Assembly (NCBI GenBank): GCA_007121015.1
Contig: SKMN01000012.1
Coordinates: 150-64,149, forward strand
DNA length: 64,000 nucleotides
Direction: 5' to 3'
Source: Coriobacteriia bacterium
GTDB lineage: Bacteria > Actinomycetota > Coriobacteriia > Anaerosomatales > SLCP01
A program made the translations under genes and the position numbers. Of the stretch, positions 41,975 through 59,863 are shown piece after piece; position 1 is the first letter of the stretch; each line of letters begins with the position of its first letter. A model generated the notes under the pieces. The model saw nothing but the letters and a program-made list of their open reading frames with translations, was not told the DNA's origin and searched no databases.

Positions 41975-42097
41975 ACGTCAGGCCACTCCTCGGCAGTTCG
42001 GGTTCAGCGGATGTGGTTCACGTCTCGCCGAGGCATGAGATCCGAGCGAGGCGCCGTCTCGGCCGCCGACCACGGCGGCGATCATCGAACTGTACGC

Positions 42098-42559: not shown

Positions 42560-42673
42560 ACCCACATGGAGCGCAGGTGTCGCAGGAGGCCGAGTCGAAG
42601 ATGTGTTTCCGGCGAAACCGGGAGGACGGTCCGAGATATTGGGTACCTGTACCTTACGGCCGTAGTGCGTGGC

Positions 42674-43039
42674 ATGAAACGGGTGATCGCTATGAAGCTC
42701 ACTTCTATTATCATCGTCGCACTCGTGGGGGCCGTGTTGCTGCTTCCCCTCGGGTGCGCTCCCGACGCAGACATCGACGTCGAGGACGTGGTCCCGGGTG
42801 ATGTCACGGTCGGGATGGCGGGATCGACGTTCCAGCCCTCGAACGTGACCATCACGGTGGGAGAGAGTGTGACGTGGGCGAATGACGACGCGGTGATCCA
42901 TACCGTGGTCGGCGAAACGTTCAGCAGCGGGAATATCGCTCCGGGAGCTACATTCACGCACACCTTCGATGAGCCCGGTATCTACGAGTACGAGTGTACG
43001 ATCCACCCTGGGATGATAGGTACCGTCACCGTCGAGTGA
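42674..43039 (+). CDS. Cupredoxin (plastocyanin/amicyanin-like blue copper) lipoprotein
   Basis: Lipobox LLPLGC. Type-1 copper ligands H (AVIHTV) and C-x2-H-x2-M (YECTIHPGM). Alternative start at ATG 42692. Confidence 0.8.
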   Translation: MKRVIAMKLTSIIIVALVGAVLLLPLGCAPDADIDVEDVVPGDVTVGMAGSTFQPSNVTITVGESVTWANDDAVIHTVVGETFSSGNIAPGATFTHTFDEPGIYEYECTIHPGMIGTVTVE

Positions 43040-44027: not shown

Positions 44028-45362
44028 TTAGGCGATCTCGAAGCGTTCGTAGTGGAGTAGCTTCCGATCGACGCCCATCTCTCCCAGTGCACGTTCTACG
44101 CCGTCGATCATCGCGGGTGGGCCACAGATGAGATACTCGTAGGCGTCGACATCGTCTATGGCTCTCTTGAGGAGATCGTCGGTGATGACGCCGACCTCGC
44201 CGTCCCATCCTTCCGGGGGGTTCTCGAGGACGTACGTGATCTCGAGATCCAGTCTCTGGGACAGTTCATCGAGTTCCCCGGAGAAGACGAGGTCTTGCTT
44301 CGCAGCGGCGCCGTACACGAGGACCATCGGTGTCGGGTCACCGCGTTCGGCGGCGTCACGGATCATGCTCATGATCGGCGTGATGCCGACGCCGCCGGCG
44401 ATGAACGCGTAGCGATCTGCCGTGTGGCGGTCGGTGGTGAACGCCCCGAAGGGGCCATCGACGTACGCCATTGTGCCGGGAGGATACTCGCCGATCTTCG
44501 ATGTGAAGTCGCCGAGCTCCTTGATGGTCATGTCGAACCCGCCGTGCTCGCGATCGGGGCTGGACGAGAACGAGAAGGGGTGCTCGGTGAGTGAGAACGG
44601 GGAGCGGCCGATGGTGACCCATGCATGCTGACCGGGCCTGAACCGGATACCCGGATGACCGTCCGGACGGAACGTGAGCGTCCACACGTCGGGTGATTCC
44701 TGCCGCACCTCGGTCACGCGGTATGGGTTGCGGAGCTGCCGGAGCGGTTTACCGACCCGGATGTAGCCGAGCGTCCCGACCCATATCGCCGCGTACGCTA
44801 CGAATGCATGCGTCTTCCAGTCGCTCGTGTAGACCCCGGTGTTCAACGTGTGGAGTGCCGCCAGAACCAGGATGGTCAAGGCACCGAGGCCGTGGCTGAA
44901 CCGCCACAGTTCGTAGCGCAGACGAACCTCACGGCGCCATACCGAGATCGCGACGATGCCGGCCACACCCAACACGGTCGCCACCGCGTACCGTGCCGAC
45001 CATGGTGCCGTGATCACGTTGAGCAGCTCGACACGATCCGGGGTCACCACGAACAGAAGTATCGGATGCGTGAGCACGAGTGCGAGCGCGACGAAGGCCA
45101 TCCGCCGGTGGAAATAGTACACGGCATCGATCCCGTAGGGTGCCTTGAGGCGGCCCACACGGGCGGATATGGCGAACTGCGTGCCGAGGATACCTACCGC
45201 TACGAACCCGAGCGCCACCGCGAACTCACGCAAGAACTCGCGGCCAGGTTCAAGCGGCGAGAGGAGCATGAGCGAGACCGGAGCGAGGACGAGCGCCAGG
45301 TACACGGCTATGCCGAGTGCGGCACGCCGCCGATAGGCCTGCCGTCCGATCCGATGTGCCAC
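44028..45362 (-). CDS. Ferric-reductase-domain (NOX-like) flavocytochrome: 6-TM heme domain fused to an FAD/NAD(P)H-binding domain
   Basis: Two TM helices each carry a His pair spaced by 13 residues (FHRRMAFVALALVLTH and SHGLGALTILVLAALH). FAD motif HPFS, NAD(P)H motif GGVGITP, and a C-terminal CGP motif. Confidence 0.8.
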   Translation of the reverse strand: MAHRIGRQAYRRRAALGIAVYLALVLAPVSLMLLSPLEPGREFLREFAVALGFVAVGILGTQFAISARVGRLKAPYGIDAVYYFHRRMAFVALALVLTHPILLFVVTPDRVELLNVITAPWSARYAVATVLGVAGIVAISVWRREVRLRYELWRFSHGLGALTILVLAALHTLNTGVYTSDWKTHAFVAYAAIWVGTLGYIRVGKPLRQLRNPYRVTEVRQESPDVWTLTFRPDGHPGIRFRPGQHAWVTIGRSPFSLTEHPFSFSSSPDREHGGFDMTIKELGDFTSKIGEYPPGTMAYVDGPFGAFTTDRHTADRYAFIAGGVGITPIMSMIRDAAERGDPTPMVLVYGAAAKQDLVFSGELDELSQRLDLEITYVLENPPEGWDGEVGVITDDLLKRAIDDVDAYEYLICGPPAMIDGVERALGEMGVDRKLLHYERFEIA

Positions 45363-45864: not shown

Positions 45865-46230
45865 TCAGGCAGCGTGCTCGACCTCGGCGAGCGAGACGGC
45901 AGGTGTCGCGCCGGTGCGCACGGCCCGGGGGAGCGAAAGCAGGCGCATCCCGGCAGGGCGGGCACCGTACGTGAGGATGAGGCTCACCATGGCGACGCTG
46001 AACAGCAGGCTCACGCTGTTGGTGAACAGTACGGCGATGGTCCCGGTGGTGAGAAGCAGGTGGACGGCGTAGACCTCCATCGCGAGGAGGCCTGCAAAGA
46101 CGCTGAGCCACATCGACAAGCTGAGGTCGTGGGCCGAGCGCGTGGTGATGATGCGCCGGATCTGAGGGACGTACCCCGCACACAGGATGACGCCGCCGCC
46201 GATCTGAAGAAGTTCCATGATGCTTCCCAT
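45865..46230 (-). CDS. PQ-loop (SemiSWEET-like) membrane protein
   Basis: LCAGYVPQIRRI is a PQ motif. There are three TM helices. The start was set at ATG 46230 (MGSIMELL); the ORF-track start at 46380 is upstream. Confidence 0.6.
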   Translation of the reverse strand: MGSIMELLQIGGGVILCAGYVPQIRRIITTRSAHDLSLSMWLSVFAGLLAMEVYAVHLLLTTGTIAVLFTNSVSLLFSVAMVSLILTYGARPAGMRLLSLPRAVRTGATPAVSLAEVEHAA

Positions 46231-46402
46231 CGCAGTGCCTTTCACACGCCTGCCCGCCTCATGTCGGTTGCAGGAGCCGTCGTTGCACGCCGAGCATAGG
46301 ATGCGGAGGTCAGCCACCGCCAGATGGCGTTGCCATTCTGTCACCGAGCCGGGGCCGGGGCGAGAACGAGGGCGGCTCAACGGTAGGCGAAACGACGGCT
46401 CT

Positions 46403-49048
46403 TCATCGGCCCGAACCGGCGACTATAGCGGTCATCACGAGAAGGAACACGACCACGATCGCTGCGATACCAAGACTCGTGTCGCGCGCGTATCGCTGGA
46501 TCTGTCGCCGGGTCTTGAGTACTGTGTCGGGGTCGATCTGCTGAGGAACGGACCAGCGCGAATGTTCTTCGGTGGCCGCCTCGATGACAAGCCGTACGAG
46601 CTCGATACCCCAGCGTAGGAACGCTTCCACCCGGCCGAACCAGCGGACTCGCAACCGGCCCAGTGCGCCGGTGGCGCGAGTTACACCTTCGCCGAGAGAG
46701 TCGTGGACGCCAGGGTGGGTAGGGGGTAGATGGTGCCTGGCGGTGCGGAGCCGTTGGTCGAACCGCTCTTCTTCGGACAGGCGGTCGACCGCGGCGGACA
46801 TCTGATCGACGACGTCGAGTCCGCACATGCGTTGTTCGGCCAGTTCGAGAGCGGTGTGGGCGACCTCACTGCGGAACACCCGGATGTCGTGCAGCGCGTG
46901 CTCGAATCCACGCCGGACAGCCTCTACCTCGCCGGATCGCACCATCTCTGCGAGAGCCCGTGTGCGCTGCCCGTGCTGACGCCTGGTCATGTGTGCCGCT
47001 ATGTCCCGGACGGCTTCCAGTGTCTCGTGAGCACGTTGAGCACTGAAGTCATCGCGTTTCTGGAGCCAGGTGTGGGCCTTCGTCACCGCGTAGCGCACGG
47101 TCACCTCGCGCTCCCTGTCAAGCGCGGCATGGGCGGTTCTAACGAAGTGCCGCCCCTTGATTCCAGGCGTGCCGGCGGCGACGACAACAGCGAGGTGGTC
47201 GATGTCCCTCTCGAGGAGGTGCCACAGCGAACGAATCCCGAGTAGCGCGTTGCGGACGGAACGAGAAACCGCATCCAGGTAGGCGCGGTGCGCACGGCCC
47301 GCCCACGACGACCAGTCGATGAAGCCGTTCGCGAAGGCGCGATACCAATAGTGTACGCCGAACCAGGAGGGGGCGCGCAGGTGGAACAGGCCGAACCGCA
47401 TACCTATGGCGTAGGCTACAGCGCCGATCGCGAACGCGATCACCGTCGACATGAGGTCGGCGGGACTTAGGAAGTACACATCGAGGTAGTAGTCGAGCCC
47501 GTCTGCGGGGAGCGCCCACGCAATCAGGCCGGGTCCCAGCAGTCCCTTCAGGAGAAGTCCGGGCCTCACGCCGAGGACGACGATCGCGGCCGCAAGTATG
47601 CCGAGCGCGACGAGCATCCTCGGCGGCGGGTCTGCGACTTCGGGTCCGTACTCGCGCTCCGGTTTCCCGAAGAACACGAGACCTATCAGCTTGATGAACG
47701 AGCACGCGGTGCCACCGCAGGTGACGAGGTATATCTTCTCGGCGATGTCGAGCGATGCGAGGTGCTGGACCTCGTAGGCCTGCTCGAGCGCGTGGTGGAC
47801 GAGGCACTTGCTCACGAACCCGTTGAAGAGCGGCACGCCCGTGATGCCCGCGGCGGCGACCAGCATGAACGCAAAGGTCCACGGCATCTTGCGCCACAGT
47901 CCGCCGAGTTCATACATATCGCTCCGTCCGGTGCGGTAGACGACCGCCCCGATACCGAGGAACAGCGCGCTCTTGAAGAGTGCGTGGTTTGCGGCGTGGA
48001 AGAGTCCACCGGCGGTCCCCATGGCGCCCTCGAGCCCTATATAGCCGGCGGCGCCTATGCCGACAAGGATGAACCCCATCTGGCTCACGCTGTGGTAGGC
48101 GAGCATCCGCTTGGCGTCGTGCTGGCCAAGGGCGAGTACGACGCCGATCGCCATCGTGGCTATGCCGAGCCAGAGCACCGTAAGTCCGAACGAGGCGGTC
48201 ATGTGCCAGAGCTGTTCCGACACGTCGGCGACGACCTCGGGACGGAAGAGCGCGCTGACCGTGCGGAAGATGCCGTATGCGCCCGCCTTGATCATCACGC
48301 CCGACAGAAGCGCACTCGCGGGCGCCGGTGCGACCGGATGCGCATCGGGGAGCCACACGTGTACCGGCACCATGCCGGCTTTGACGCCGAACCCGCCCAC
48401 GAGTAGGCCGAACGTGATCCACCGGAGTGTTTCGGGGCTGTCCGAGAGGGGCAGTGGGCCGAGCGAGGCGTCGCCTCCTAGCGCCTGCGTCAGGAAGATG
48501 CCGCCGATGAGAGCGAAACCACCGAGCACCGTCATCCACAGGTACGTGACGGACGCCCGTGATGCTTCTGCTGTACGCGCGTGGATCACGAACAGGAATG
48601 CGACGAGTCCGAGAGCCTCGAAGAACAGGTAGAGCGTGACGAGGTCGCCGGCAAGCACGACACCGAGCATCGATGCGAGTACGACGAGGCTCGTGCTGTG
48701 GTACAGGTCGCGGTGTTCGTGGTGCTTCAGGTAGTCGAACGAGTACAGGGTGGCGCAGAACCACACGAACGTCGCGAAGAGCGCGAACACCATACCGAAC
48801 GGGTCGGCTACGAACGTCAGCCTTCCGATCATCGCCGGGATCTCAGCACCCACCCGGTGGTTCGCTGCGACGAGCGGGAGGAGGGCGGCCGCTCCGAGCA
48901 GTGTTGTCCCGCTTACGCCGAGTACATATGCGTTCCGGAGACGAGGACTCCATCTGCCGAGCGGCCGAACGGCTGCGGCCGCCAACAGTGGTCCGAGTAC
49001 GAGGAGCACCGGTAAGGGGTGCGAGGCTATGTCGGCGATCCCAGTCAT
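46403..49048 (-). CDS. MrpA/NuoL-like antiporter subunit with a long C-terminal helical extension and a terminal TM helix (881 aa)
   Basis: The N-terminal ~550 aa form a proton-conducting-membrane-transporter fold (LYLFFEALGL with the TM5 Glu, GFGVKAGMVPVHVWLPDAH with the TM7 Lys). About 300 aa of charged helical sequence follows, then IAAIVVVFLLVMTAIVA. Confidence 0.85.
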   Translation of the reverse strand: MTGIADIASHPLPVLLVLGPLLAAAAVRPLGRWSPRLRNAYVLGVSGTTLLGAAALLPLVAANHRVGAEIPAMIGRLTFVADPFGMVFALFATFVWFCATLYSFDYLKHHEHRDLYHSTSLVVLASMLGVVLAGDLVTLYLFFEALGLVAFLFVIHARTAEASRASVTYLWMTVLGGFALIGGIFLTQALGGDASLGPLPLSDSPETLRWITFGLLVGGFGVKAGMVPVHVWLPDAHPVAPAPASALLSGVMIKAGAYGIFRTVSALFRPEVVADVSEQLWHMTASFGLTVLWLGIATMAIGVVLALGQHDAKRMLAYHSVSQMGFILVGIGAAGYIGLEGAMGTAGGLFHAANHALFKSALFLGIGAVVYRTGRSDMYELGGLWRKMPWTFAFMLVAAAGITGVPLFNGFVSKCLVHHALEQAYEVQHLASLDIAEKIYLVTCGGTACSFIKLIGLVFFGKPEREYGPEVADPPPRMLVALGILAAAIVVLGVRPGLLLKGLLGPGLIAWALPADGLDYYLDVYFLSPADLMSTVIAFAIGAVAYAIGMRFGLFHLRAPSWFGVHYWYRAFANGFIDWSSWAGRAHRAYLDAVSRSVRNALLGIRSLWHLLERDIDHLAVVVAAGTPGIKGRHFVRTAHAALDREREVTVRYAVTKAHTWLQKRDDFSAQRAHETLEAVRDIAAHMTRRQHGQRTRALAEMVRSGEVEAVRRGFEHALHDIRVFRSEVAHTALELAEQRMCGLDVVDQMSAAVDRLSEEERFDQRLRTARHHLPPTHPGVHDSLGEGVTRATGALGRLRVRWFGRVEAFLRWGIELVRLVIEAATEEHSRWSVPQQIDPDTVLKTRRQIQRYARDTSLGIAAIVVVFLLVMTAIVAGSGR

Positions 49049-49055
49049 GGTGGAC

Positions 49056-50552
49056 CTAGCGGAAGAAGGCGTCGACGGCGAGTTGCGCGAGTGAAAGCGG
49101 GGAGCCGGGCACGGTGGCAGCCAGGCCGAGCGCGAGGGTCATGAGCGATGCGACGATCGTGGGAACGAGCATGCCGGCGGGAGCCTCGGACTCAGTGTCG
49201 TCGCGCTCGGCCGACGAAGACGGCGGCTCTCGGAAGTAGGCGCTGTAGATGATCGGCAACAGGTAGACCGCCGCTATCAACGAGCCACCCAGCAGAACCG
49301 CCAAGTAGAACGGCTGGCCCGCATCGAGTATCCCGAGGCCGAGGTACCATTTACTGATGAAGCCGGCGAGTGGGGGCGTGCCGATCATGCCGAGCGATGC
49401 GAGGGAGAACGCCGCCATCGTCCACGGCATGCGCCGGGCCACACCCGCCATCTCGCTCACGCTCCGGATGCCCGCACGCTTGCTCAGGAGTCCAGCACAC
49501 AGGAAGAGGGCACCCTTCATGAAGGCGTGATTCGTGATGTGTACGAGTGCTCCGACCGCCGCGCCCGCGCCCAGCAGGGCGATGCCGAGTGTCACGTATC
49601 CCATCTGGCTGATCGTCGAGTACGCGAGACGGCGCTTGATACCGTCCTCGCTCACGGCGAGCACTGCCGCGAAGAACACCGTGAATGCGGCGAAAGCCGC
49701 GACATACGGCATCACGCCTAGATGTGTGAGAATCTCGATTCCAAACACCTGGAACACCACGCGTGCTATCCCGAAGGTGCCCGCCGCGACCATCACGCCC
49801 GACAGCACCGCCGAGAAGGGCGCCGGCGCAGCCGGGTGCGCGTCGGGCACCCACCCGTGCAGGGGTACGATGGCGGCTTTGACCCCGAAGCCCGCGATGA
49901 AGCACCAGAAGATCGCGCGCAGCACGCCCACGTCCGTCTCGCTGCCAAGAAGTCCGCCGGCAGTGAGTGTCTGATCTCCAGCGACGAAATAGGTGAACAC
50001 CACACCCACGAGGACAAGGCTGCCGCCGATCAGGATGTAGACGATGTACTTGGTGCCTGCCGCCAGCGCGGCCGGGGTCTCATCGTGGACGATGAGGGGG
50101 TAGGTCAGTATCGAGAAGAGTTCGTAGAAGATCAGAAAGGTGAGCAGGTTTCCCGCGTAGGCGACGCCCATCATACAGCCGAGGCACAACATGAGGAACG
50201 CGTAGAAACGGTTCAGACGATGACTGTCCGCCATATGTGATAGCGAGTAGACGAGCACGAGCACCCAGAGGCCGGCCACCGTCGCACCGAACAGGACGCC
50301 GAGCGCATCGACGCGCAGATGCAGCCAGATCTGCGGGGTCACGCGTAGCAGGTACGCCTCTCGGATCTCACCGGTCATCGTTGCCGGTACGAACGAGAAC
50401 GCGAGTGCCGCAGTGACGGCGCAGGCCACCACTAACACCACATTTCGGGCACTCCTGGACGTGCGCCCAAGGATCGGCGCAAGCATGGCGCCGGCGATCG
50501 GCAGGAGCACCGCGAACACCGGGGCGGTCGAAGACATCAGTGAGTCGTCCAC
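49056..50552 (-). CDS. MrpD/NuoM/N-like antiporter subunit (third tandem copy in operon order)
   Basis: FLIFYELFSILTYPLI (Glu) and GFGVKAAIVPLHGWVPDAH (Lys). The start is GTG 50552 or ATG 50537. Confidence 0.88.
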   Translation of the reverse strand: MDDSLMSSTAPVFAVLLPIAGAMLAPILGRTSRSARNVVLVVACAVTAALAFSFVPATMTGEIREAYLLRVTPQIWLHLRVDALGVLFGATVAGLWVLVLVYSLSHMADSHRLNRFYAFLMLCLGCMMGVAYAGNLLTFLIFYELFSILTYPLIVHDETPAALAAGTKYIVYILIGGSLVLVGVVFTYFVAGDQTLTAGGLLGSETDVGVLRAIFWCFIAGFGVKAAIVPLHGWVPDAHPAAPAPFSAVLSGVMVAAGTFGIARVVFQVFGIEILTHLGVMPYVAAFAAFTVFFAAVLAVSEDGIKRRLAYSTISQMGYVTLGIALLGAGAAVGALVHITNHAFMKGALFLCAGLLSKRAGIRSVSEMAGVARRMPWTMAAFSLASLGMIGTPPLAGFISKWYLGLGILDAGQPFYLAVLLGGSLIAAVYLLPIIYSAYFREPPSSSAERDDTESEAPAGMLVPTIVASLMTLALGLAATVPGSPLSLAQLAVDAFFR

Positions 50553-50562
50553 GGCCCTCACC

Positions 50563-52038
50563 TCACATCCTAAAGACGAAGCGCACGGCAGCCTCGGCGA
50601 GCGAGAACGGCATCCCGGCCACCTCTGACGTCGTTCCAAGTGCGATCACCCATATCGCGCACACGAGTGTCGGAACGAGGAGCGTCGGGCGCGCCTCCTT
50701 CATGGGCGCTGCGGCGCCCCGCGCCGGCTTGAAGAAGGCAAGGTACACGATGGGCAGGAAGTAGGCGGCGTTCAGCAACGAGCTCGTGATCATCACGAGC
50801 AGGAACCACCACTGCCCCGATTCGAGTGCACCGAGTGAGATGTACCACTTGGTGATGAATCCGGCGAACAGCGGCATGCCGATGAAGCTCAGCGACGCGA
50901 CGGTGAACGCACCCATCGTCCACGGCATCTGATGGCCGATACCGGCCAGTTCGTGGACGTTCGTCTTTCCGGTGGTCCGCTGGATGGCTCCCGCAACGAA
51001 GAACATGGTGATCTTCGCGAGTGCTTGGTTTGCGAAGTGCACGATCGCCGCGGTCGCCGCGAATGGCGTGAGCATGCTTGCCGCCAAGACGATGTAGGAG
51101 ATCTGGCTGATCGTCGAGTACGCGAGGCGGCGCTTGAGGTCGTCTTGGAAGATGGCGATGACGGACGCTGTGATGATGGTGAATGCAGCAAGCGCAGCAA
51201 GGGGGAGTGTGAATCCCAGACCGTCCAACAGGTCGACACCGAACACGTTGTAGACCGTGCGCACGATGCCAAATGCCCCGGCCTTCACCACGGCCACTGC
51301 GTGCAGCAGTGCGCTGACCGGCGTAGGGGCCACCATCGCTCGGGGGAGCCAGCCATGCAGCGGCATCAGCGCTGCCTTGGTCGCGAACCCGATCACGAGC
51401 AAACCGAAGATGAACCCGAGCCTACCAGTGCCTATGCCGGCGTCCAGGATGCCCGGATGACCCAAGCTGATCGTGCCGGTAGCGTCGTGCACCATCACCG
51501 TTCCTACGAGCACGAAGGCCCCTCCGATAAGCGTGTACGTCAGGTACGCCCGCCCCGCACTCAGTGCCTCAGGCGTCTCGTAGTGGATCACGAGGGGATA
51601 GGTGCAGATGGTAAGCATCTCGTAGAAAAGGAAGAAGGTCAGGAGGTTCTCGGCGAACGCGATGCCCACCGTCGTGGAGACACACAGCGCAAAGAATCCG
51701 AAGAAGCGGACGCGTTTCTCATCCTCTCTCATGTAGCCGATAGCGTAGACGGTCGTCGCCACCCACAGGCTCGAAGAGACGAGAGCAAAGAACATCCCCA
51801 GGGCGTCGGCACGGAATCCAAGACCGATGCCACCTGTGAAGTCGACAAGATCGAACGTGTAGACGACGCCCTGAAGCGATCCGGGCAGCATGGACAGCAC
51901 GATGAGCATCTTGATGGTTGCGGCAGACAGCATCCAGAAACGGCGCCAATGCGTCTTGCGGCCGAACAAAAAGACCATGCCGGCGCAGGCGAAGGACATC
52001 GCGGGTGCGAGCAGCGGCCGGATGTCCACTACTTCCAT
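50563..52038 (-). CDS. MrpD/NuoM/N-like antiporter subunit (second copy)
   Basis: FFLFYEMLTICTYPLV and GFATKAALMPLHGWLPRAM; 491 aa. Confidence 0.88.
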   Translation of the reverse strand: MEVVDIRPLLAPAMSFACAGMVFLFGRKTHWRRFWMLSAATIKMLIVLSMLPGSLQGVVYTFDLVDFTGGIGLGFRADALGMFFALVSSSLWVATTVYAIGYMREDEKRVRFFGFFALCVSTTVGIAFAENLLTFFLFYEMLTICTYPLVIHYETPEALSAGRAYLTYTLIGGAFVLVGTVMVHDATGTISLGHPGILDAGIGTGRLGFIFGLLVIGFATKAALMPLHGWLPRAMVAPTPVSALLHAVAVVKAGAFGIVRTVYNVFGVDLLDGLGFTLPLAALAAFTIITASVIAIFQDDLKRRLAYSTISQISYIVLAASMLTPFAATAAIVHFANQALAKITMFFVAGAIQRTTGKTNVHELAGIGHQMPWTMGAFTVASLSFIGMPLFAGFITKWYISLGALESGQWWFLLVMITSSLLNAAYFLPIVYLAFFKPARGAAAPMKEARPTLLVPTLVCAIWVIALGTTSEVAGMPFSLAEAAVRFVFRM

Positions 52039-52039
52039 C

Positions 52040-53539
52040 TCAGCCTCCCAGCGGGGCGAGGAGTCGAGCGACCCCGGGCTCGATGAATGTGAGGGGTACG
52101 CGGCCGAGGATGCCCATGATCAGGCAGAGGCTCGCGAGCACCAATGTGGGCAGGAGCATCGACACGGGGGCATCTTTCGCCTCGGCCACCTCGGCATGAA
52201 CCGGCTCTCGGAAGTAAAACGCGTTCACCATCCTGATGTAGTAGATGAAGATGAGGAGCGCCCCGAAGATGAGCACGAACCCGAAGAAGGGCCGATCGGC
52301 CTGGAAGGCGCCGAGGGCGATGTACCACTTGCACAAGAAGCCGGCGGTTGGCGGGATGCCGACGATGGAGATGGCCCCGACAGAGAGCGCCACCGCGGTC
52401 AGAGGCATGGCCCGTCCCACACCTCGCAGGTCGGTCAGGGTGCGGTATCCGGTCCGATAGATGATCGCGCCGACGGCGAAGAAGAGCGTCGCCTTGATCA
52501 GGGCGTGGTTGAAGATGTGCACGCTTGCGCCGATGACGCCATAGGTGGTTGCAAGTCCGAGACCCATGACGATGTAGCCGATGTTGGATATGGTCGAGTA
52601 GGCGAGCATGAGCTTCACGTCGTCTTGGAAGACTGCGAAGAACGCGCCCATCACGATCGATATCGCACCGAGCCATATCAAGACGAGGTTGAGCACGGTG
52701 AGGTCGAACATGCCTGAGCCGTAGTAGATCCGGTACACACGGATCATCCCGATGACCCCGACCTTCACCACGAGTCCTGATAGCACCGCACTCACCGGGC
52801 TCGGTGCGGCAGCGTGGGCATCCGGCAGCCAGACATGAAGCGGGAAGACCGCCGCCTTCGTGGCGAAGCCGACGACCAGCATGCCGAGTGCGACTGCCGC
52901 AGGTGCAGTGGGTCCCTCGAATCCATGAAGCCGCGCGGTCACGTCGGCGATGTTGAGAGTGCCGGTGATGCCGTAGAGAAACCCTATCGCGAACAGCACG
53001 AGTAACGACGAGATAGCACCCATGAGCAGGTACTTGAAGGCGGCCATCTCGGCGATGCGTTCCCCTCCCACGGCTACGAGCGCGTACCCGGAAAGCGAGA
53101 GGACCTCCATGAAGACGAAGAGGTTGAAGAGGTCGCCCGTGACGGTGAAGCCGATCATCCCGCCACAATTGAGCAGGAGTAGCGTGTAGTAGTAGGGCGT
53201 GCGGCCTCGCGCGAACTCGGGCAACGAGTCGGTGTATCGGCTGGAGAAGAGGACCGCCAGCCAGCCTACGAGACAGATGACGCCGACGACCGCACTGAAC
53301 TCGTCGAAATGCAACTCGATGCCGTACGGGGCGGTCCATCCTCCAGGGACATACGAGAACGGCCCTTCATGGAAGATGCGCAGCACAAGCATGGTCGCGG
53401 CGAACGACGTGACCGTCATTGTGCTGAGTGCCCACCACGTCGGTGTCCGACGGTCGATCAGGGCTACGACGGGAGTGAGCGCCGCTCCGACGAGCGGCGT
53501 CAGCACGATGAGCGCGAGCCAGTGAGGCCAGAGGTGCAC
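52040..53539 (-). CDS. mrpD: MrpD/NuoM/N-like antiporter subunit (first copy)
   Basis: LFVFMEVLSLSGYALV and GFATKAAVFPLHVWLPDAH; 499 aa. Confidence 0.88.
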   Translation of the reverse strand: MHLWPHWLALIVLTPLVGAALTPVVALIDRRTPTWWALSTMTVTSFAATMLVLRIFHEGPFSYVPGGWTAPYGIELHFDEFSAVVGVICLVGWLAVLFSSRYTDSLPEFARGRTPYYYTLLLLNCGGMIGFTVTGDLFNLFVFMEVLSLSGYALVAVGGERIAEMAAFKYLLMGAISSLLVLFAIGFLYGITGTLNIADVTARLHGFEGPTAPAAVALGMLVVGFATKAAVFPLHVWLPDAHAAAPSPVSAVLSGLVVKVGVIGMIRVYRIYYGSGMFDLTVLNLVLIWLGAISIVMGAFFAVFQDDVKLMLAYSTISNIGYIVMGLGLATTYGVIGASVHIFNHALIKATLFFAVGAIIYRTGYRTLTDLRGVGRAMPLTAVALSVGAISIVGIPPTAGFLCKWYIALGAFQADRPFFGFVLIFGALLIFIYYIRMVNAFYFREPVHAEVAEAKDAPVSMLLPTLVLASLCLIMGILGRVPLTFIEPGVARLLAPLGG

Positions 53540-53893
53540 TTACTCCAGCTCCCTCAGTTCGTCCGCCTCGATGGTCCCGAAACGGCGATAGACGCGGATG
53601 ATGAGAGTGAGCGCAAGCGCCGTCGTCGAGACGGCGACCACGATGCCTGTCAGCACGAGCGTCTGCGGCAACGGGCTTGCGAACGGACCGTGAGCATCGC
53701 CGGTCATGATGGGCGGTTGGCCGTCCTCGATGACTCCGAGCGCGATGATAAAGGCGAACACCGCAGTCTCCATGATGTTCAAGCCGAGGAACTTCTTGAT
53801 GAGGTTGTTCTTAGCGATGACCACGTACAACCCGATACAGAAGAGCACTACCGAGGCCACGTAGTCGATGTTGTGCCAGAGGGCAGTGAGCAT
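53540..53893 (-). CDS. mrpC: MrpC/MnhC (NuoK-like) subunit
   Basis: VVLFCIGLYVVIAKNNLIKKFLGLNIMETAVF...LVLTGIVVAVSTTALALTL. ATGA overlap with the mrpB stop. Confidence 0.88.
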   Translation of the reverse strand: MLTALWHNIDYVASVVLFCIGLYVVIAKNNLIKKFLGLNIMETAVFAFIIALGVIEDGQPPIMTGDAHGPFASPLPQTLVLTGIVVAVSTTALALTLIIRVYRRFGTIEADELRELE

Positions 53894-54642
53894 CAGCTCG
53901 CCTCCATCTGCAGAAAGATCATGGCGAGGACGGCAGCGCCACCCAGGGCGATTCCGACCTCGAGAGCGATCAGCATGAGGTCGCGAACGATGCGGAGCGA
54001 GGGGTCGACAGGGAAGCCCAGGTAGACTCCGGTCAAAAGCGCACCGACGGCGCCAACCGCAGCGAACGTGAGTACCGCCGCACCCTGCATCCACGGGGCG
54101 AGAACCGGGCGTACGAGCGGTCGGGTCCGTTCCTTGCCGAGCACCATGGTGAGGGCGATGAACAGCCCGCCGAGAATGGCACCGCCCTGGAACCCACCAC
54201 CCGGGGTCACGTGACCGTGCAGTATCACGTACGCCGCGTAGAGGGCTGTGAACGGTGCGATGAGCCGCACGACGAAGTGCACGATGGGGCTCACCGGATG
54301 ATCGGGATGTCGCCTGTCCGCATCGCTTCGCCGAACACGGCCGTCGTGGTTGCTCGCGTCAGCATCTCGCGTGCTAGCAACGGTGAGCACGGCGAGTACG
54401 GCGATGAGCGCCGTGAAAATCACCGTGACCTCACCGGCAGCGTCGAGTCCACGGTAGTTCAACAAGACGCCCGTCACGAGGTTGGACGCGCCGGCCTCTT
54501 CCACGCCATGCTCGATGTATCGTGCCGACACGTGAGTGTGTACGGGTGCGGAAGGATCGCCGTGGACTGGAAGTCCTGCTACTCCCGCCAGCAGAGGGAC
54601 AGCAGCGAGAAAGGCGAGGGATATGGCGATGGGCCTCCTCAC
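53893..54642 (-). CDS. mrpB: MrpB/MnhB subunit
   Basis: NLVTGVLLNYRGLDAAGEVTVIF...HVTPGGGFQGGAILG. GTGA overlap with the preceding gene. The upstream part of ORF 53893..55221 is not coding. Confidence 0.82.
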   Translation of the reverse strand: MRRPIAISLAFLAAVPLLAGVAGLPVHGDPSAPVHTHVSARYIEHGVEEAGASNLVTGVLLNYRGLDAAGEVTVIFTALIAVLAVLTVASTRDADASNHDGRVRRSDADRRHPDHPVSPIVHFVVRLIAPFTALYAAYVILHGHVTPGGGFQGGAILGGLFIALTMVLGKERTRPLVRPVLAPWMQGAAVLTFAAVGAVGALLTGVYLGFPVDPSLRIVRDLMLIALEVGIALGGAAVLAMIFLQMEAS

Positions 54643-54881
54643 TTCTCTCGCCTCGTCGTCCGGCCGATGGCTACGAGGAAGAGAACGGTCGTGATGCCGG
54701 CACCGACCGCCGCTTCGGTCATCGCCACGTCCGGTGCCCCGCGATACTGCCACAGCAGGCACAGCGCGAGACCGTAGGAGGAGAAGACGATCGACGCGGC
54801 GAGGAGGTCTTTGGCACGCGCGACCACCAGCGCTGCCGCGATCAGGTAGAGAAGCAGGAAGATGTCGAAGGTCAGGCTCAT
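54639..54881 (-). CDS. DUF4040 protein (stand-alone equivalent of the MrpA C-terminal domain; MbhD-like)
   Basis: 80 aa with three TM helices (LLLYLIAAALVVARAKDLLAASIVFSSYGL...PDVAMTEAAVGAGITTVLFL). It lies between mrpG and mrpB. Confidence 0.7.
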   Translation of the reverse strand: MSLTFDIFLLLYLIAAALVVARAKDLLAASIVFSSYGLALCLLWQYRGAPDVAMTEAAVGAGITTVLFLVAIGRTTRREK

Positions 54882-54884
54882 GAC

Positions 54885-55211
54885 TCACTCCTCCTCGGCA
54901 TGCCAGGGGACCAATCCTGTGCGGTGAGCAGCTCGTGCCAGTGCGTGCCCCGTAGTGGGGCTGGAGAGCAGCACGAGGCCAGCAAGGACGATGATCTTTG
55001 CGGTGGAGGGCTCTGCCCCGTTGAGGACGATGAGAGCAGTGAGCAGCAGGCCGGCGCCCACCGTGTCGCACTTCGTGGCCGCGTGTACGCGAGAGAAGAA
55101 GTCGGGTAGTCGCAGCAGCCCCACCGTCCCGAGCAGGAAGAAGGCCGCTCCGGCGGCAGCGAGGACGACGATCGTCGCGAAGCGGATGTCGCCGACACCG
55201 ATCATGACCAA
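54885..55211 (-). CDS. mrpG: MrpG/MnhG subunit
   Basis: LLGTVGLLRLPDFFSRVHAATKCDTVGAG is the MnhG signature. Confidence 0.88.
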   Translation of the reverse strand: MVMIGVGDIRFATIVVLAAAGAAFFLLGTVGLLRLPDFFSRVHAATKCDTVGAGLLLTALIVLNGAEPSTAKIIVLAGLVLLSSPTTGHALARAAHRTGLVPWHAEEE

Positions 55212-55477
55212 TCACCAGCAAGACGTCCGGTCTCGAGAAAGCGGCTGGCAGTGATGGTGATGACGAAGTTCAACAACCCGTAGACGAGTGCGACATCGAG
55301 AAGCATGTCCCTGCCGAAAGCCATCGCCAGGACCACGAGTAGGACGAGGGTCTTGGTACCGATGATGTTCACGGCAAGTACGCGGTCCACCACCGTTGGG
55401 CCCGTTGTGGCCCGCCAGAGACACGCGAATGCATTGACGAGCAGGAATATCCCGAGGCCCCATACGAGCGTTACCAC
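55202..55477 (-). CDS. mrpF: MrpF/MnhF subunit
   Basis: ATTGPTVVDRVLAVNIIGTKTLVLLV is the MnhF signature; 91 aa. Confidence 0.88.
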   Translation of the reverse strand: MVTLVWGLGIFLLVNAFACLWRATTGPTVVDRVLAVNIIGTKTLVLLVVLAMAFGRDMLLDVALVYGLLNFVITITASRFLETGRLAGDWS

Positions 55478-55483
55478 AGGTCG

Positions 55484-55972
55484 TCACTCCTCGAAGATGC
55501 GGGAGATTCGTCGCGCAAGATCACCGCGCGAGATGTCATCGGCGAAGCTGGCGTCGAGACAGTGGATGAGAAATCGGTCGTCTTCTACGTCGATCACCAC
55601 CGCACCTGGCGTCATGCCGATCGAGTTCGCGTACGCGACACGCGAAACCTCGCGCTCGAATCTGGCGCGGTGTTCGACCGTCACCGGGGCCAACGGCATG
55701 CGAGGGTCGAGGACGATGCGGGCAACATGTGTCGCTGCGAGAAGCATGTGTGCGAGCAGGTAGGGGACGAATAGCAGCAGTCGGGATGTGTGTCCGAGAG
55801 TGAGCAGGGGGGCGTCGTCTGTCCACAACAGCCGTGCCGCGAGTACGCCGAGGAGGCTGGATAAGGCGAGTCCCGTGACCAGGTCGGCTGCAGCGATCGA
55901 TCCGGTCAGGACGAGCCAGAACGCGAAAAGCGCCACCGATGCCTGCACGGCCTTCACTGTCGGCCTCCTCAA
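55484..55972 (-). CDS. mrpE: MrpE/MnhE subunit
   Basis: ALFAFWLVLTGS...NSIGMTPGAVVIDV is an MnhE-like pattern. It is the first gene of the minus-strand operon. Confidence 0.8.
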   Translation of the reverse strand: MRRPTVKAVQASVALFAFWLVLTGSIAAADLVTGLALSSLLGVLAARLLWTDDAPLLTLGHTSRLLLFVPYLLAHMLLAATHVARIVLDPRMPLAPVTVEHRARFEREVSRVAYANSIGMTPGAVVIDVEDDRFLIHCLDASFADDISRGDLARRISRIFEE

Positions 55973-56031
55973 GCCTTGGCGGAAACTCCCGTCAGGCCTC
56001 CCTCATACTGGCTCAGCCACAGTCGTCTACG

Positions 56032-56052
56032 GTGCTCATACCCGTTGAGCAC
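56032..56052. promoter_or_regulatory. Perfect 7-N7-7 palindrome in the mrpE/gltS divergent intergenic region (candidate operator)
   Basis: GTGCTCA-TACCCGT-TGAGCAC, 60 nt upstream of the mrpE start and 73 nt upstream of the gltS start. Confidence 0.45.
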
Positions 56053-56124
56053 ACGTTGCACCTGCGCAGCTCGTCGACGTCATCCGGCACAAGCAATCGC
56101 GCGCATTGGGTAATACACACCTAC

Positions 56125-57546
56125 ATGGGAGTCGCGCAGACACTGATAGCGCTCGGGTGGGCGACGGGGTTCGTGGTGGCGGCGAAGGTCGCTCACCGGC
56201 ATGTGAAGGTGTTTCGGACGCTCTTCATCCCGAGTTCGGTCATCGCCGGCATCGCGGCGCTGCTCATCGGGCCGCAGGTGCTCGGTGCGCTCGCGACGTC
56301 GCTGGAGTGGGGCGACCCCTTTGCGGGCGGGCTCGTTCCAGAGAGCGTGCTCGACGTGTGGTCGGCGATACCTGGACTCCTCATCAACGTGGTGTTCGCC
56401 GCGCTCTTCCTCGGCAAGAGGATCCCGCCGCTGCGCGACATCATCCGAATCGCCGGTCCGCAGGTCGCGCTCGGCCAGAGCATGGCGTGGGGGCAGTACG
56501 TCGTGGGCATCCTGCTGGCGATCGCGGTCCTGCAGCCGGTGTTTGGGATGAACCCGGCAGCCGGGGCGCTCATAGAGATCGGCTTCGAGGGTGGCCACGG
56601 CACGGCTGCCGCGCTCGAGTCGACGTTCGCGGAGTTCGATTTCGCCGAGGGCTCCGATCTCGCGCTCGGGCTCGCGACGTTCGGGCTCGTCGCAGGAGTG
56701 CTCTCGGGGCTCGCGATCATCAACTGGGGTCTTCGCACCGGGCGGATCGACCGCGAGCTGATCGAGGGCGACGGGATGCCTGCGGAAGAGGAGGCGGAGT
56801 CGCTCGGAGAGTTCGACGAGCGCGAGCATGATCAGGGCGATCCTCACGAGGACGTCGCGATCGATCCGCTCTCGGTGCACCTCGGGCTCATCGCCGTGGC
56901 CATCGCGCTCGGCTGGCTGCTGCAGCAGGGGCTCATCGCGCTCGAGGCCGCGACGTGGGCGCGCGATGACGGACTCGAGCTGTTCCGCCATATCCCGCTC
57001 TTCCCGCTCGCGATGATCGGGGGTCTGGCCCTCCAGATCGGGCTCACCCGGCTCGGCGACGCGGGACCGCACGTCGATCGCGCACTCGTGAACCGCGTCT
57101 CCGGCGCTTCGCTCGATCTCGTCATCGTCACGGCGCTCGGCACACTCTCGCTCGCGGTGCTCGGGGACAACATCGCGCCGCTGCTCATCTTGGCGGTAGC
57201 CGGACTCACCTGGAGCGTCGTCGCATTGCTGGTGCTTGCCCCGCGCATCGTCCCGGACCACCCTTATCAGCGGGGATTGGCGGATTTCGGGCAGTCGACC
57301 GGCATGACCGTGACCGGTCTGCTCCTCGTACGGATGGTCGACCCCGATGGCCGCACGAAGGCGATGGAGGGCTTCGGCTACAAGCAACTCCTCTTCGAGC
57401 CATTCGTGGGCGGCGGGCTGTTCACCGCGATCTCCGTGCCGCTCATCGTGCAGCTTGGCCCGTGGCCGGTGCTCGGCATCACCGCAGCTCTCATGGTCAT
57501 CTCGATGGGGGTCGGGATCCGCTTCTTCGGCCCGGACGGGCGCTAG
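56125..57546 (+). CDS. gltS: Sodium/glutamate symporter GltS-family protein
   Basis: FIPSSVIAGIAALLIGPQVLG and IEIGFEGGHGTAAAL motifs. It is polytopic. The ORF-track start at 55939 is upstream of the likely ATG 56125. Confidence 0.75.
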   Translation: MGVAQTLIALGWATGFVVAAKVAHRHVKVFRTLFIPSSVIAGIAALLIGPQVLGALATSLEWGDPFAGGLVPESVLDVWSAIPGLLINVVFAALFLGKRIPPLRDIIRIAGPQVALGQSMAWGQYVVGILLAIAVLQPVFGMNPAAGALIEIGFEGGHGTAAALESTFAEFDFAEGSDLALGLATFGLVAGVLSGLAIINWGLRTGRIDRELIEGDGMPAEEEAESLGEFDEREHDQGDPHEDVAIDPLSVHLGLIAVAIALGWLLQQGLIALEAATWARDDGLELFRHIPLFPLAMIGGLALQIGLTRLGDAGPHVDRALVNRVSGASLDLVIVTALGTLSLAVLGDNIAPLLILAVAGLTWSVVALLVLAPRIVPDHPYQRGLADFGQSTGMTVTGLLLVRMVDPDGRTKAMEGFGYKQLLFEPFVGGGLFTAISVPLIVQLGPWPVLGITAALMVISMGVGIRFFGPDGR

Positions 57547-57569
57547 GAACGGGCTGTAAAGGCCCGGTT
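57546..57569 (+). terminator. Hairpin at the gltS stop
   Basis: GAACGGGC-UGUAAAG-GCCCG(G)UUC, followed by GCACCCGUUUGUU. Confidence 0.4.
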
Positions 57570-57578
57570 CGCACCCGT

Positions 57579-57587
57579 TTGTTATGA
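57579..57587 (+). promoter_or_regulatory. Extended -10 promoter element upstream of ablA
   Basis: TGtTATGAT (TGnTATAAT-like), about 83 nt upstream of the ablA start. Confidence 0.4.
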
Positions 57588-57669
57588 TAGAAGGGACTCA
57601 AGGGTGCACATTTCGGGGTAGACGTGTGCGCCCGAGCCCTGTCCCCGGCCTTTGGGAGGCCCTATAGCT

Positions 57670-58992
57670 GTGGGTATACACGAGACCCGGCTCGAAGCCG
57701 TCGCCGCGCGCATCGAAGGCGCCGACGACCCCGCCCGCTGGCGGGACTGGCGATGGCAGCTCCGTAACTCGCTTACGACCCTCGACGCTGTCGAGGAGGC
57801 GCTCGGCATCGAGTTCGATGCGGCCGAGCGCGTACTGCTCGAGGAGACACTCCAGCAGTTCCCGTTGTCGGTGACCCCGTACTACCTCTCGCTCATCGAC
57901 ACCGGCGACTTCCGAAACGACCCTGTGTTCCGGCAGGCGCTCCCGTCAGACGAGGAGATCGTCGTCGAGGAGCACGACATGGTCGACCCGCTCGCCGAAG
58001 ACCAGGACAGTCCGGTACCGCTCATCACACATCGGTATCCTGACCGGGTGCTCTTCCGCGTGAGCAACACGTGCTCGATGTATTGTCGCCACTGCACGCG
58101 GAAGCGCACCGTGGGAGACAGGGACTGCGTCCCGACGACAGAAGAGCTCGCGGACGCGCTCGACTACATCCGCGCCACGCCGGGCGTGCGCGACGTGCTG
58201 CTGTCCGGCGGCGACCCGCTCATGCTCTCCGACGACCGCCTCGACGAGATCCTCTCGGCGCTCGACGCTATCGAGCACGTCGAGGTGGTGCGGATCGGTA
58301 CCCGTATGCCAGCGGTGCTCCCGTACCGCATCACCGACGAGTTCTGCGAGATGCTTCGGCGCCATCGGCCGGTATGGCTCAACACGCATTTCAACCATCC
58401 CAAGGAGCTCACGCCTGATGCCGAGGAGGCCCTTGCGCGGCTCGCAGACGCGGGCGTACCCCTCGGCAACCAGACGGTGCTCCTCGCAGGCGTCAACGAC
58501 TGCTCGCGCATCATGTTGCGGCTCGTCCAGCGTCTTGTCGCCAACCGCGTGCGACCGTACTACCTCTACCAGTGCGACCTCTCTGAAGGACTCTCGCACT
58601 TCCGCACGCCGGTCGGTAAAGGCATCGAGATCGTCGAGAGCCTCATAGGTCATACGAGCGGGTTCGCGGTACCTACGTACGTCGTGGACGCCCCGCACGG
58701 GGGCGGCAAGATCCCGGTAATGCCCAACTACATCGTGTCGTGGGCATCGGACAGGGTCGTGCTGCGCAACTACGAGGGCGTCATCTGCACGTATCGCGAG
58801 CCGGATCGCTACAAGCGCGCAGCGTGCAACGAGGAGTGCGACGACTGCGAGCGCTCGGTCGCCGCAGGCTGCCGCGGCCACGAGTCGAGCGGGGTCGCCG
58901 GACTGATGCGTGAGTGCGACCCGGTCGAAGCGCTCGTGCCGAGCACCAACGAGCGGCACCAGCGCCGCGAGGGAGTGTCCGCCGATGAGTGA
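57670..58992 (+). CDS. ablA: Lysine 2,3-aminomutase (radical SAM, KamA/AblA)
   Basis: [12 protein letters not shown] (the CxxxCxxC radical-SAM cluster), [10 protein letters not shown] and [11 protein letters not shown] 57670 lies 9 nt after GGGAGG. Confidence 0.9.
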
Positions 58993-59863
58993 CGCGACCG
59001 CATGTGCCGTCGCACGCGACCGCACGGAACCCATCGGCGGCGCGCTCGTGCATCACGGGACGGCGAGCGACCGAGCCTACCTCGTGAAGGCAGGTCCCGA
59101 CGCGGCCTCCGATGTAGCCGTGCTCGAGCGGCTTGCCCGCGAGCACGGCTACGGCAAGCTGTTCGCGAAGATCACCACGGAGGCCCTCGAGCCGTTCCAG
59201 GCGGCGGGCTTCGCGGTCGAAGCACGGGTCCCGCTCGCCGACCGTGACGACGAGCTGCTGTTCTGCTCGCGCTTCGTCGATCCGGAGCGTGCTCGGGGAG
59301 GCGACCGCGCACGCCTGGAGCAGGTGCTGGCCGAGTGTGCCGTCGCCAACGTGCATTCTCAGGTCGACGACGGTGCCACCTCTCCGCCGGTCGACGTGCG
59401 CGTCGCCGGTCCGACCGAGGTGGACGAGATCGCCCGGCTCTATGCCGAGGTGTTCGAGAGCTACCCGTTCGACATCGACGATCCCGGATTTCTTGCGGAT
59501 GCGATGAGCGAAGGCACCGTGTTCGCCGTCGTGAGCGAGAAAGAGCGTATCGTTGCCGCCGCATCCGCGGAGATCGATGTGGCCACCGCAAGCTGTGAGA
59601 TGACCGACTTCGCCACCGCTCCTGCCCGGCGCGGCCGGGGGCTTGCATCGTCGCTGCTCCACGCGTTGGAGACCGAGGCAGCCGCTCGTGGCTGCGCGAC
59701 CGCATACACGATCGCGCGGGCGACCTCGGCCAGCATGAATGTTGTGTTCGCGCGGCGCGGCTACGGGTTCGGCGGGACGCTCGTCAACAACACGGGGATC
59801 TGCGGTCGTGTGGAGAGCATGAACGTGTGGTACCGCAGTTTGCATATCGATACTCACGGTTAG
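58985..59863 (+). CDS. ablB: Beta-lysine N6-acetyltransferase (GNAT, AblB-like)
   Basis: The start overlaps the ablA stop (ATGAGTGA). About 290 aa with a C-terminal GNAT core ([18 protein letters not shown]) and a terminal motif [10 protein letters not shown]. The pairing with kamA is the abl operon arrangement. Confidence 0.75.

Follow-up and report, generated by a model that had tools for sequence, protein, structure and literature searches.

Ten tightly packed genes on the minus strand of a Coriobacteriia contig (SKMN01000012.1 of assembly GCA_007121015.1; positions 46403-55972 of the 64,000-nucleotide stretch analysed here, referred to as the window, with a G+C content of ~65%) form one operon that encodes a stand-alone Mrp-like complex with four antiporter-like subunits. 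The usual number of such subunits in Mrp antiporters is two, and in respiratory complex I it is three. The ten-gene layout is real, stand-alone and widespread; it lies inside a recognized but loosely defined Mrp group and is largely auto-annotated as Mrp subunits, the three D genes by name (monovalent cation/H+ antiporter subunit D in NCBI records) and the L gene generically. We favor, with reasonable but not high confidence, the reading that the operon encodes one Mrp (CPA3) membrane complex of the “group 3” type, acting as a secondary Na+(K+)/H+ antiporter driven by the membrane potential, resembling MBH (membrane-bound hydrogenase) and MBS, both complexes of Pyrococcus furiosus, and enlarged by two extra modules.

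The ten open reading frames (ORFs) were assigned by using Pfam and NCBIfam hidden Markov models. Together with the ORF coordinates, these assignments bore out the gene sizes and order given in a first-pass annotation of the window. The operon begins with mrpE (55484-55972; MNHE, PF01899, E-value 1.4e-28; best PDB match MbsA, 6u8y_A), whose probable start is the GTG at 55957, preceded by a GAGGAGG ribosome-binding site; this start gives 157 aa and agrees with the gene call of the source record. It continues with mrpF (55202-55477; MrpF_PhaF, PF04066, E-value 1.7e-16), mrpG (54885-55211; PhaG_MnhG, PF03334, E-value 6.2e-25; TIGR01300 above cut-off), an 80-aa MbhD peptide, formerly DUF4040 (54639-54881; PF13244, E-value 2.8e-21), a 249-aa mrpB-like fusion of MbhE and MnhB with a GTG start (53893-54642; PF20501 and PF04039), and a 118-aa NuoK-like mrpC (53540-53896; Oxidored_q2, PF00420; NF005621 at 128.8 bits against a cut-off of 126). 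Four large subunits follow: D1, an orthodox MrpD/MbhH-type antiporter-like subunit of 499 aa (52040-53539; Proton_antipo_M, E-value 2.3e-66); the extra antiporter-like subunits D2 (491 aa; 50563-52038) and D3 (~494 aa; 49056-50540, the raw ORF reaching 50639), both with Proton_antipo_M and Proton_antipo_N; and L, an 881-aa terminal subunit resembling the MrpA N-domain, NuoL and MbsH' (46403-49048), in which Proton_antipo_M covers residues 133-423 only. The MbhD/mrpB junction is a GTGA overlap read directly in the sequence, the mrpB/mrpC junction is an ATGA overlap deduced from coordinates, and the remaining junctions are gaps of 0-25 bp by ORF coordinates. The first-pass annotation had named both overlaps as signs of a single operon, and the same gene order is kept in 61 other loci.

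All canonical Mrp parts are present in this set. The cation module is made up of E, F, G and B; C is encoded separately; and the MrpA C-domain is split between the MbhD peptide, which maps to MrpA residues ~600-690 in NCBIfam and is equivalent to MrpA transmembrane helices (TM) 17-19, and the fusion protein, whose N-terminal MbhE part is equivalent to MrpA TM20-21 and whose remainder is MnhB (MrpB). D1 is the MrpD/MbhH equivalent and L the equivalent of MrpA TM1-16, and D2 and D3, a 42%-identical pair encoded between them, make two further modules. Identities of D2 and D3 to D1 are 34-36%, and those of L to the other three are 30-33%.

The affinities of the large subunits were judged by ranked PDB and NCBIfam scores as a proxy for phylogeny. 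All four match MbhH (of P. furiosus MBH) or MbsH above bacterial MrpD/MrpA or NuoL/M/N. D1 matches MbhH (6cfw_H, 259 bits), then MbsH, then MrpD (200 bits); D3 has MbhH as its best PDB match; and L matches MbhH, then MrpA, with MrpA chains as the top Foldseek matches of its structural model. D2 and D3 fall in a separate NCBIfam clade (NF005561/NF006236) at ~400-500 bits, under the cut-offs. All four subunits score below the equivalog cut-offs of their nearest families (NF009305, NF005561/NF006236 and NF009310), at 348/700 bits for D1, 504/718 for D2, 407/718 for D3 and 268/564 for L; they are related to these families and are not members of them. For E, F and G, too, the best matches are MBS and MBH subunits, above bacterial Mrp. 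The likeness to Mbh/Mbx-type modules that had been noticed from the E-F-G-first order and the split-off DUF4040 peptide is thus matched by the best structure hits (MbhH, MbsH, MbsA/B/C).

Residue conservation in the large subunits was counted over 58-60 orthologues per paralogue. D1, D2 and D3 all show an invariant Glu at TM5 and invariant Lys at TM7, TM11 and TM12; in L, the TM5 position is Glu in 54/59 (5 gaps), and Lys is found in 57/59 at TM7 (1 Arg, 1 gap), 58/59 at TM11 (1 Arg) and 55/59 at TM12 (1 Ser, 1 Val, 2 gaps). At the TM8 position, Lys is present in 56/58 D1 sequences (2 Asn), in all 60 D2 sequences and in 57/59 L sequences (1 Pro, 1 gap), and D3 has Ala in 59/60. The second TM11 His is kept in D1, D3 and L, and is Gln in 60/60 D2 sequences. 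The conserved residues of D1 are E145, K228, K259 and K404; those of L (E144, K223, K254 and K414) are invariant among 99 homologues. The TM5 Glu and TM7 Lys already noticed in the window are therefore conserved across orthologues, and the Glu/Lys/Lys set needed for proton transfer is kept in all four modules. The earlier proposal that all four are plausible ion translocators agrees with these key charged residues, except that D3 deviates at TM8. The D3 Ala and the D2 Gln are fixed paralogue signatures, not decay. Conservation within the operon is highest for D2, with at least 68% identity among its 120 best matches.

For the smaller subunits, a list of residues essential in Mrp was taken from published work (PMC5703873 and PMC9568556) and checked in ~62 orthologues. 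The MrpE T121/P122 motif (62 orthologues), MrpF D31/R32, MbhE-segment D67/E71 (equivalent to MrpA D776/E780) and MnhB-segment F151 (equivalent to MrpB F41) are invariant, MrpC E43 is invariant or nearly so, and MrpG P85 is kept in 60/61. The MbhD peptide carries an invariant TEAAVGAG motif of the MBH type that includes E56, an acidic residue one helical turn ahead of the MrpA E687 position.

To define the distribution of the operon, one genome per GTDB species was scanned, giving 498 stretches with relatives, of which the best 80 loci were fetched; the ten window proteins were mapped onto 83 loci. All ten genes occur in identical order in 62 of the 83 (the window's own contig and 61 others), and the remaining loci are cut by contig ends or broken by frameshifts. 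Recurrence of one order in 61 other loci from species-representative genomes puts the arrangement far beyond chance, and purifying selection on all ten genes is strong across phyla. The ten-gene order spans at least two phyla (Coriobacteriia/Actinomycetota and Gammaproteobacteria), and Gemmatimonadota and Truepera are represented by single loci with truncated or reduced versions only. Other carriers include Coriobacteriaceae bacterium EMTCatB1, Thioalkalivibrio sp. XN8 and Gammaproteobacteria such as Wenzhouxiangella. L itself is identical to a protein on contig SLCG01000089 of the metagenome-assembled genome (MAG) GCA_007125935.1, and has at least 119 homologues with 43-79% identity, most of them near full length (~840-940 aa) and few shorter or partial, mostly from MAGs of Coriobacteriia, Anaerosomatales or other Actinomycetota; these are annotated as “complex I subunit 5 family protein”, “NADH dehydrogenase” or “hydrogenase-4 component B”. 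Many carrier MAGs bear “CSSed” isolate labels, which we read as soda-lake sediment samples, and others belong to haloalkaliphilic genera, e.g., Thioalkalivibrio and Wenzhouxiangella. The first-pass annotation had called a stand-alone antiporter with four channel modules non-standard. With 61 further loci the oddity was overstated. The same annotation had named discovery of a common, already characterised Mrp subtype as a refutation; the arrangement is common, but the literature searched yielded no characterised example, no paper describing a stand-alone Mrp that combines three D subunits with an L subunit.

Some of the fetched loci depart from this pattern. A Gemmatimonadota MAG (L073:1-5236) apparently has D1, one D2/D3-type gene and L only, a possible three-module variant. 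In Gammaproteobacteria (L072:14711-23303, also L054, L063, L070 and L071), a second, divergent Mrp-like cluster stands directly after the first, with E, F, G, MbhD, MbhE+MnhB, (C), two D-type genes, a 515-aa protein without a Pfam match and a 691-aa Proton_antipo_M protein. A 1427-aa ORF in Thioalkalivibrio sp. XN8 was considered as a D3-L gene fusion and rejected; D3 and L lie in different frames, and the ORF is the L frame plus an open stretch upstream.

The C-terminal extension of L (residues ~553-881; 46403-47392, minus strand) was described from the secondary structure of an AlphaFold2 model built with 99 homologues (mean predicted local distance difference test score, pLDDT, of 86.9) and from hydrophobic moments. 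In the model, a 14-TM core is followed by TM15 (529-552), a 60-residue helix (565-624), a soluble bundle at 630-773 (helices 630-663, 670-704, 708-741 and 747-773, pLDDT mostly >90), a lower-confidence helix (789-826), a helix spanning 840-854 and, at the very end, a TM helix (857-879). Strong amphipathicity marks helices 565-624, 789-826 and 840-854, with a hydrophobic moment of 0.44-0.55 and a mean hydrophobicity of ~0; those in the middle are hydrophilic. Overall, the segment carries a net positive charge (47 K/R against 38 D/E). This modeled pattern would fit a cytoplasmic-face lateral element as in NuoL and MrpA, interrupted by a soluble helical bundle. The extension has no Pfam match and no significant fold match in the PDB (best E-value 0.03). 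When 1.84 billion representatives were searched with its profile, only 62 clusters matched, and every match lay either in a fragment or at the C-terminal end of a ~840-970-aa protein.

Two short L variants (L084:10001-12073, 690 aa, and L085:10001-11956, 651 aa; proteins P0113 and P0088) are without residues ~600-830, i.e., the soluble bundle and the second amphipathic helix (789-854), and yet their operons keep the gene order E-F-G-MbhD-B-C-D-D-D-L. This makes the bundle an insertion specific to certain lineages, and dispensable for the four-module layout. The idea that the ~300-residue extension acts as a “ruler” spanning three extra modules, for which complex I offers a precedent in a 26-residue HL insertion that goes with an extra NuoM (PMC9040806), was rejected on the same ground, as the short variants keep three D genes.

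The stand-alone character of the operon was examined by searching for redox genes around it, over 16 kb downstream and, upstream, the 8 kb that the window offers. No NuoB/C/D/H/I-like, hydrogenase or formate dehydrogenase gene was found in the window between 29.5 and 64 kb. The absence of such genes for more than 10 kb on either side, as claimed from the first reading, holds downstream; upstream only 8 kb is checkable because the window ends there. One redox gene had gone unmentioned, a NOX-like membrane oxidoreductase of 444 aa with Ferric_reduct, FAD- and NAD(P)-binding domains by Pfam, 1 kb past the operon on the same strand (44028-45362). The search was extended to ~60 loci, in which the nearest two ORFs on either flank of the operon were scanned with Pfam (122 upstream and 112 downstream). 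None of these 234 flanking ORFs belongs to Nuo, hydrogenase or formate dehydrogenase families, and NuoH/MbhM-, NuoD/MbhL- and NuoB/MbhJ-like genes are adjacent in none of the ~60 loci, in keeping with the earlier observation that no redox module is adjacent. The downstream ORFs are heterogeneous (histidine kinases, PfkB kinases, MFS transporters and others). In nine loci (L025, L026, L031, L032, L036, L037, L038, L040 and L046), L is followed after ~0.1 kb by a gene for a ~280-aa protein, on the plus strand as is L, with a C-terminal 2x[4Fe-4S] ferredoxin domain and a 210-residue N-terminal part without assignment, a possible subclade-specific redox partner.

The upstream ORFs are more uniform: 49 of the 122 carry a GGDEF domain, 15 are HlyIII and 13 DUF4118. 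The GGDEF-type gene lies on the same strand directly upstream of mrpE in ~49/61 related loci (~80%; e.g., L001:2243-3088, L003:2234-3100 and L085:2227-3135), often overlapping mrpE by 4 bp; neither the window nor its closest relative (L004) has it. Its product combines three or four N-terminal TM helices with a GGDEF-fold domain, and the GG(D/E)EF motif is absent from all eight sequences inspected; the protein is degenerate and probably non-catalytic, and may be an eleventh subunit or a regulator. The flanking-ORF scan thus defines a conserved unit of ten genes, joined in ~80% of loci by the degenerate-GGDEF gene. This gene, the NOX-like gene, the wide distribution and the ~300-residue insertion in L had all been missed in the first-pass annotation.

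In terms of known classes, the joint gene set and the mutagenesis-essential residues agree with Mrp/CPA3 (TC 2.A.63), with the exception of the MrpF Asp38 equivalent, which is Asn; the ten-subunit complex is predicted from its sequence to catalyze Na+(K+)/H+ antiport. Group 3 Mrp systems have been defined by the lack of a full-length mrpA and the presence of only mrpD-type large subunits, sometimes multiple, either stand-alone or within respiratory complexes (PMC8415708, after Swartz 2005 and Ito 2017). The operon agrees with this description: the N- and C-domains of MrpA are joined in no gene, four genes are MrpD/MbhH-like, and L is functionally the equivalent of MrpA TM1-16. MbhJ/K/L/N and MbhM (the NuoB/C/D/I/H homologues) of MBH, MBS and Mbx are missing from the 29.5-64 kb part of the window and from the flanking ORFs of ~60 loci, and the NuoH, NuoB/C/D/I and NuoA/J families of complex I, including its 2M and green variants, are not adjacent, MrpE/F/G/B being present instead. 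Because it has no hydrogenase-like or Q module, the operon falls outside both MBH/MBS and complex I.

Among systems that have been studied, the closest is P. furiosus's stand-alone group 3 Mrp (mrpEFGBB'CD, PF1147-53), which shares the E-F-G-first order, the MrpA C-domain as separate B-type genes, an MbhH-like MrpD and the lack of a redox module, and for which Na+/H+ coupling has been shown physiologically (PMC8415708); it has one antiporter-like subunit and no MrpA-N/L, whereas the window encodes four, including an L that has both a lateral-helix region and a terminal TM helix. With canonical group 1/2 Mrp (mrpABCDEFG; 6Z16, 7QRU and 7D3U), the window shares all functional parts and the residues MrpA-E140/K223, MrpD-E137/K219, MrpA-E780, MrpB-F41, MrpF-D32/R33, MrpE-T113/P114 and MrpG-P81. 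The window differs from it in gene order, in the split of MrpA into three genes, in two additional modules, in MrpF Asp38 being replaced by Asn, and in the acidic residue of the MbhD segment, which lies in TEAAVGAG one helical turn earlier than in the LTQLLVE of Mrp. P. furiosus MBH and MBS (6CFW and 6U8Y) give the best sequence matches for every subunit and share the Mrp-type gene order, and the H' subunit of MBS also has TM15-16 and a lateral helix, as L does; however, both contain a hydrogenase-like module (MbhJKLMN/MbsJKLMN) that the window lacks, and they have one (MBH) or two (MBS) antiporter-like subunits instead of four.

Enlargement of a pump chain by duplication to four or five modules is shared with Nitrospira 2M complex I, rhizobial green complex I and Ca. 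Manganitrophus Complex_I_3, where it has been interpreted as a changed ion/energy ratio (PMC9040806); it is known only in such redox-driven complex I variants. These differ from the window in being driven by NuoH/B/C/D/I and in an L-type helix that gains ~26 residues per extra module, whereas the length of the L extension here is independent of module number. The cyanobacterial group 3 Mrp of Aphanothece halophytica (mrpCD1D2EFGAB) is stand-alone with a duplicated mrpD and confers Na+/H+ antiport in Escherichia coli (PMC5703873), but differs in gene order, in having two D genes against three D genes and L, and in subunit lineage.

By analogy with Mrp and complex I, the subunits would be arranged in one line (E/G/F/B - C/MbhD/MbhE - D1 - D2 - D3 - L), with the amphipathic C-terminal helix and the terminal TM helix of L running back along the cytoplasmic face and clamping the chain. 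Protons would enter via up to four channels per Na+ expelled, against the approximately two proposed for canonical Mrp. Two-module Mrp has been modeled at 2 H+ per Na+ (PMC9568556), and alkaline pH homeostasis needs electrogenic antiport with more H+ than Na+ moved (PMC7419157); four modules could therefore give 3-4. Such a higher H+/Na+ “gear ratio” would make Na+ extrusion and cytoplasmic acidification possible at a small proton-motive force and against a steep Na+ gradient. By this analogy, Na+ extrusion through the complex would probably run at a higher H+/Na+ ratio when the proton-motive force is low, which would fit soda-lake, alkaline-subsurface and low-energy anaerobic habitats.

The setting of the operon was counted as supporting context for this function. 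Divergent from it on the plus strand lie a Glt_symporter-family gene, a lysine-2,3-aminomutase gene (radical SAM and LAM_C) and a GNAT acetyltransferase gene (55939-59863; Pfam), the latter two of which we take to be an ablA/ablB-like pair suggestive of N-epsilon-acetyl-beta-lysine osmolyte synthesis. Na+-coupled symporter genes thus adjoin the operon both in the window and in locus L084, where an SSF Na+:solute symporter gene lies directly upstream, and the osmolyte genes stand beside the habitat labels of the carriers. In locus L085, a Na_H_Exchanger gene and a Fer4 protein gene lie downstream of the operon.

Several observations weigh against the antiporter reading as a whole or in part. 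D3 is without the central TM8 Lys and D2 has Gln for the TM11 His, so that not every module need conduct protons. MrpF residue 37, equivalent to Bacillus pseudofirmus MrpF Asp38, is Asn in 63/63 sequences; this position is Asp in MbhB, MbsB and Anoxybacillus flavithermus MrpF, and Asp38 has been implicated in Na+ handling by molecular dynamics simulation (PMC9568556), and the transported cation may therefore differ. The long L extension is not accounted for by the extra modules. Carriers of the family include organisms without obvious alkaliphily, e.g., thermophilic subsurface Fe(III) reducers (PMC9686372), and no experimental data on activity, expression or stoichiometry of any family member were found in the literature searched.

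Three other explanations of the ten genes were weighed. The ten proteins could be the ion-translocating arm of a redox-driven or otherwise energized pump, an MBH/MBS/Fpo-like complex split across loci, with the input module encoded elsewhere or variable by lineage. We consider this unlikely. All subunits are nearer MBH/MBS than bacterial Mrp, same-strand redox genes follow the operon in some lineages (the NOX-like gene in the window, and by inference in L004), as does the 2x[4Fe-4S] protein in nine loci, and partial nuo loci exist elsewhere in Anaerosomatales genomes (PMC9686372); yet each candidate redox neighbor is confined to one subclade, and the genes for the core of such a module are adjacent to the operon in none of the ~60 loci. 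The conserved cytoplasmic helical bundle modeled in L could be a docking site, but it is absent from the short L variants with the same operon. The split-pump explanation is weakened because there is no conserved partner and because a stand-alone group 3 Mrp functions in P. furiosus (PMC8415708). That same Mrp, working with a single MrpD and without the MrpA N-domain (PMC8415708), lends some support to a division into two assemblies, a minimal group 3 Mrp (E, F, G, MbhD, B, C and D1) and a separate D2-D3-L trimer, e.g., a NuoLMN-like cation module or one related to CO2/bicarbonate, as do the NCBIfam clade of D2 and D3, well apart from D1, and the single D2/D3-type gene apparent in the Gemmatimonadota locus. 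Against this stand the order and tight spacing, invariant in 62 loci, the lack of any DabA-, CupA- or other partner gene with D2-D3-L in the flanking-ORF scans of ~60 loci, and the lateral helix and terminal TM of the L/MrpA type, which clamp the modules of one complex in every solved relative (PMC9568556); we regard two assemblies as improbable.

To a similarly small degree we would credit the view that D2, D3 or both are structural spacers that no longer conduct ions, which would make the complex an ordinary two-channel Mrp. The Ala at the TM8 Lys position of D3 (59/60) and the Gln at the TM11 His position of D2 (60/60) are what this view would draw on, but as fixed signatures of their paralogues they differ from scattered decay; moreover, the TM5 Glu and the TM7, TM11 and TM12 Lys are invariant in D2 and D3 across ~60 orthologues from at least two phyla, and D2 is the best-conserved protein of the operon.

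Under the preferred reading of one enlarged antiporter, a further and distinctly tentative proposal is that the Mrp gear ratio is variable and set by module number, so that a four-channel, redox-free chain would move 3-4 H+ per Na+, like enlarged c-rings in ATP synthase, perhaps with the membrane-anchored degenerate-GGDEF protein as an eleventh, regulatory partner and with a lineage-specific cytoplasmic helical domain on L. If this is true, Na+ expulsion and acidification of the cytoplasm would be within reach of anaerobes and haloalkaliphiles even when the proton-motive force is very low, and a really higher H+/Na+ ratio would be one way in which cells handle high pH, high Na+ and low-energy metabolism together. 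For Mrp, MBH and complex I alike, the central question still to be answered is the long-range coupling of antiporter-like subunits, and a four-module chain without a redox module would provide a natural test of whether one proton is moved per module per cycle and of how the coupling signal passes.

The remaining features of the window lie around the operon. Downstream of L are a PQ-loop protein gene (45865-46380, minus strand) and a small ORF, then the NOX-like gene, and, between the latter and azlCD, a plus-strand gene for a 479-aa protein (41600-43039) whose only Pfam match is a cupredoxin (plastocyanin/azurin-like) domain at the C-terminus; beyond it lie AzlCD and a branched-chain amino-acid ABC transporter. 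In the closest relative, a PQ-loop gene, a 156-aa ORF and a 444-aa ORF follow the operon in the same positions as in the window; only the first two were scanned with Pfam, and the oxidoreductase in that locus was inferred from the size and position of the 444-aa ORF. Further upstream of the operon are citrate synthase, MntP and MscS genes. No convincing terminator site was found between L and the PQ-loop gene, where counts equal chance expectation. By sequence and source-record gene calls, the intergenic region between the divergent mrpE and Glt_symporter genes (55958-56124) is the presumed promoter region, only presumed because no sigma-70 consensus site was found in it. An Rfam scan of the window gave no regulatory RNA before the operon; its sole match is a c-di-GMP-I riboswitch at 1992-2084 on the minus strand (RF01051, 57.4 bits, E-value 1.4e-8), 54 kb from the operon and notable only since related operons have a GGDEF-like gene.

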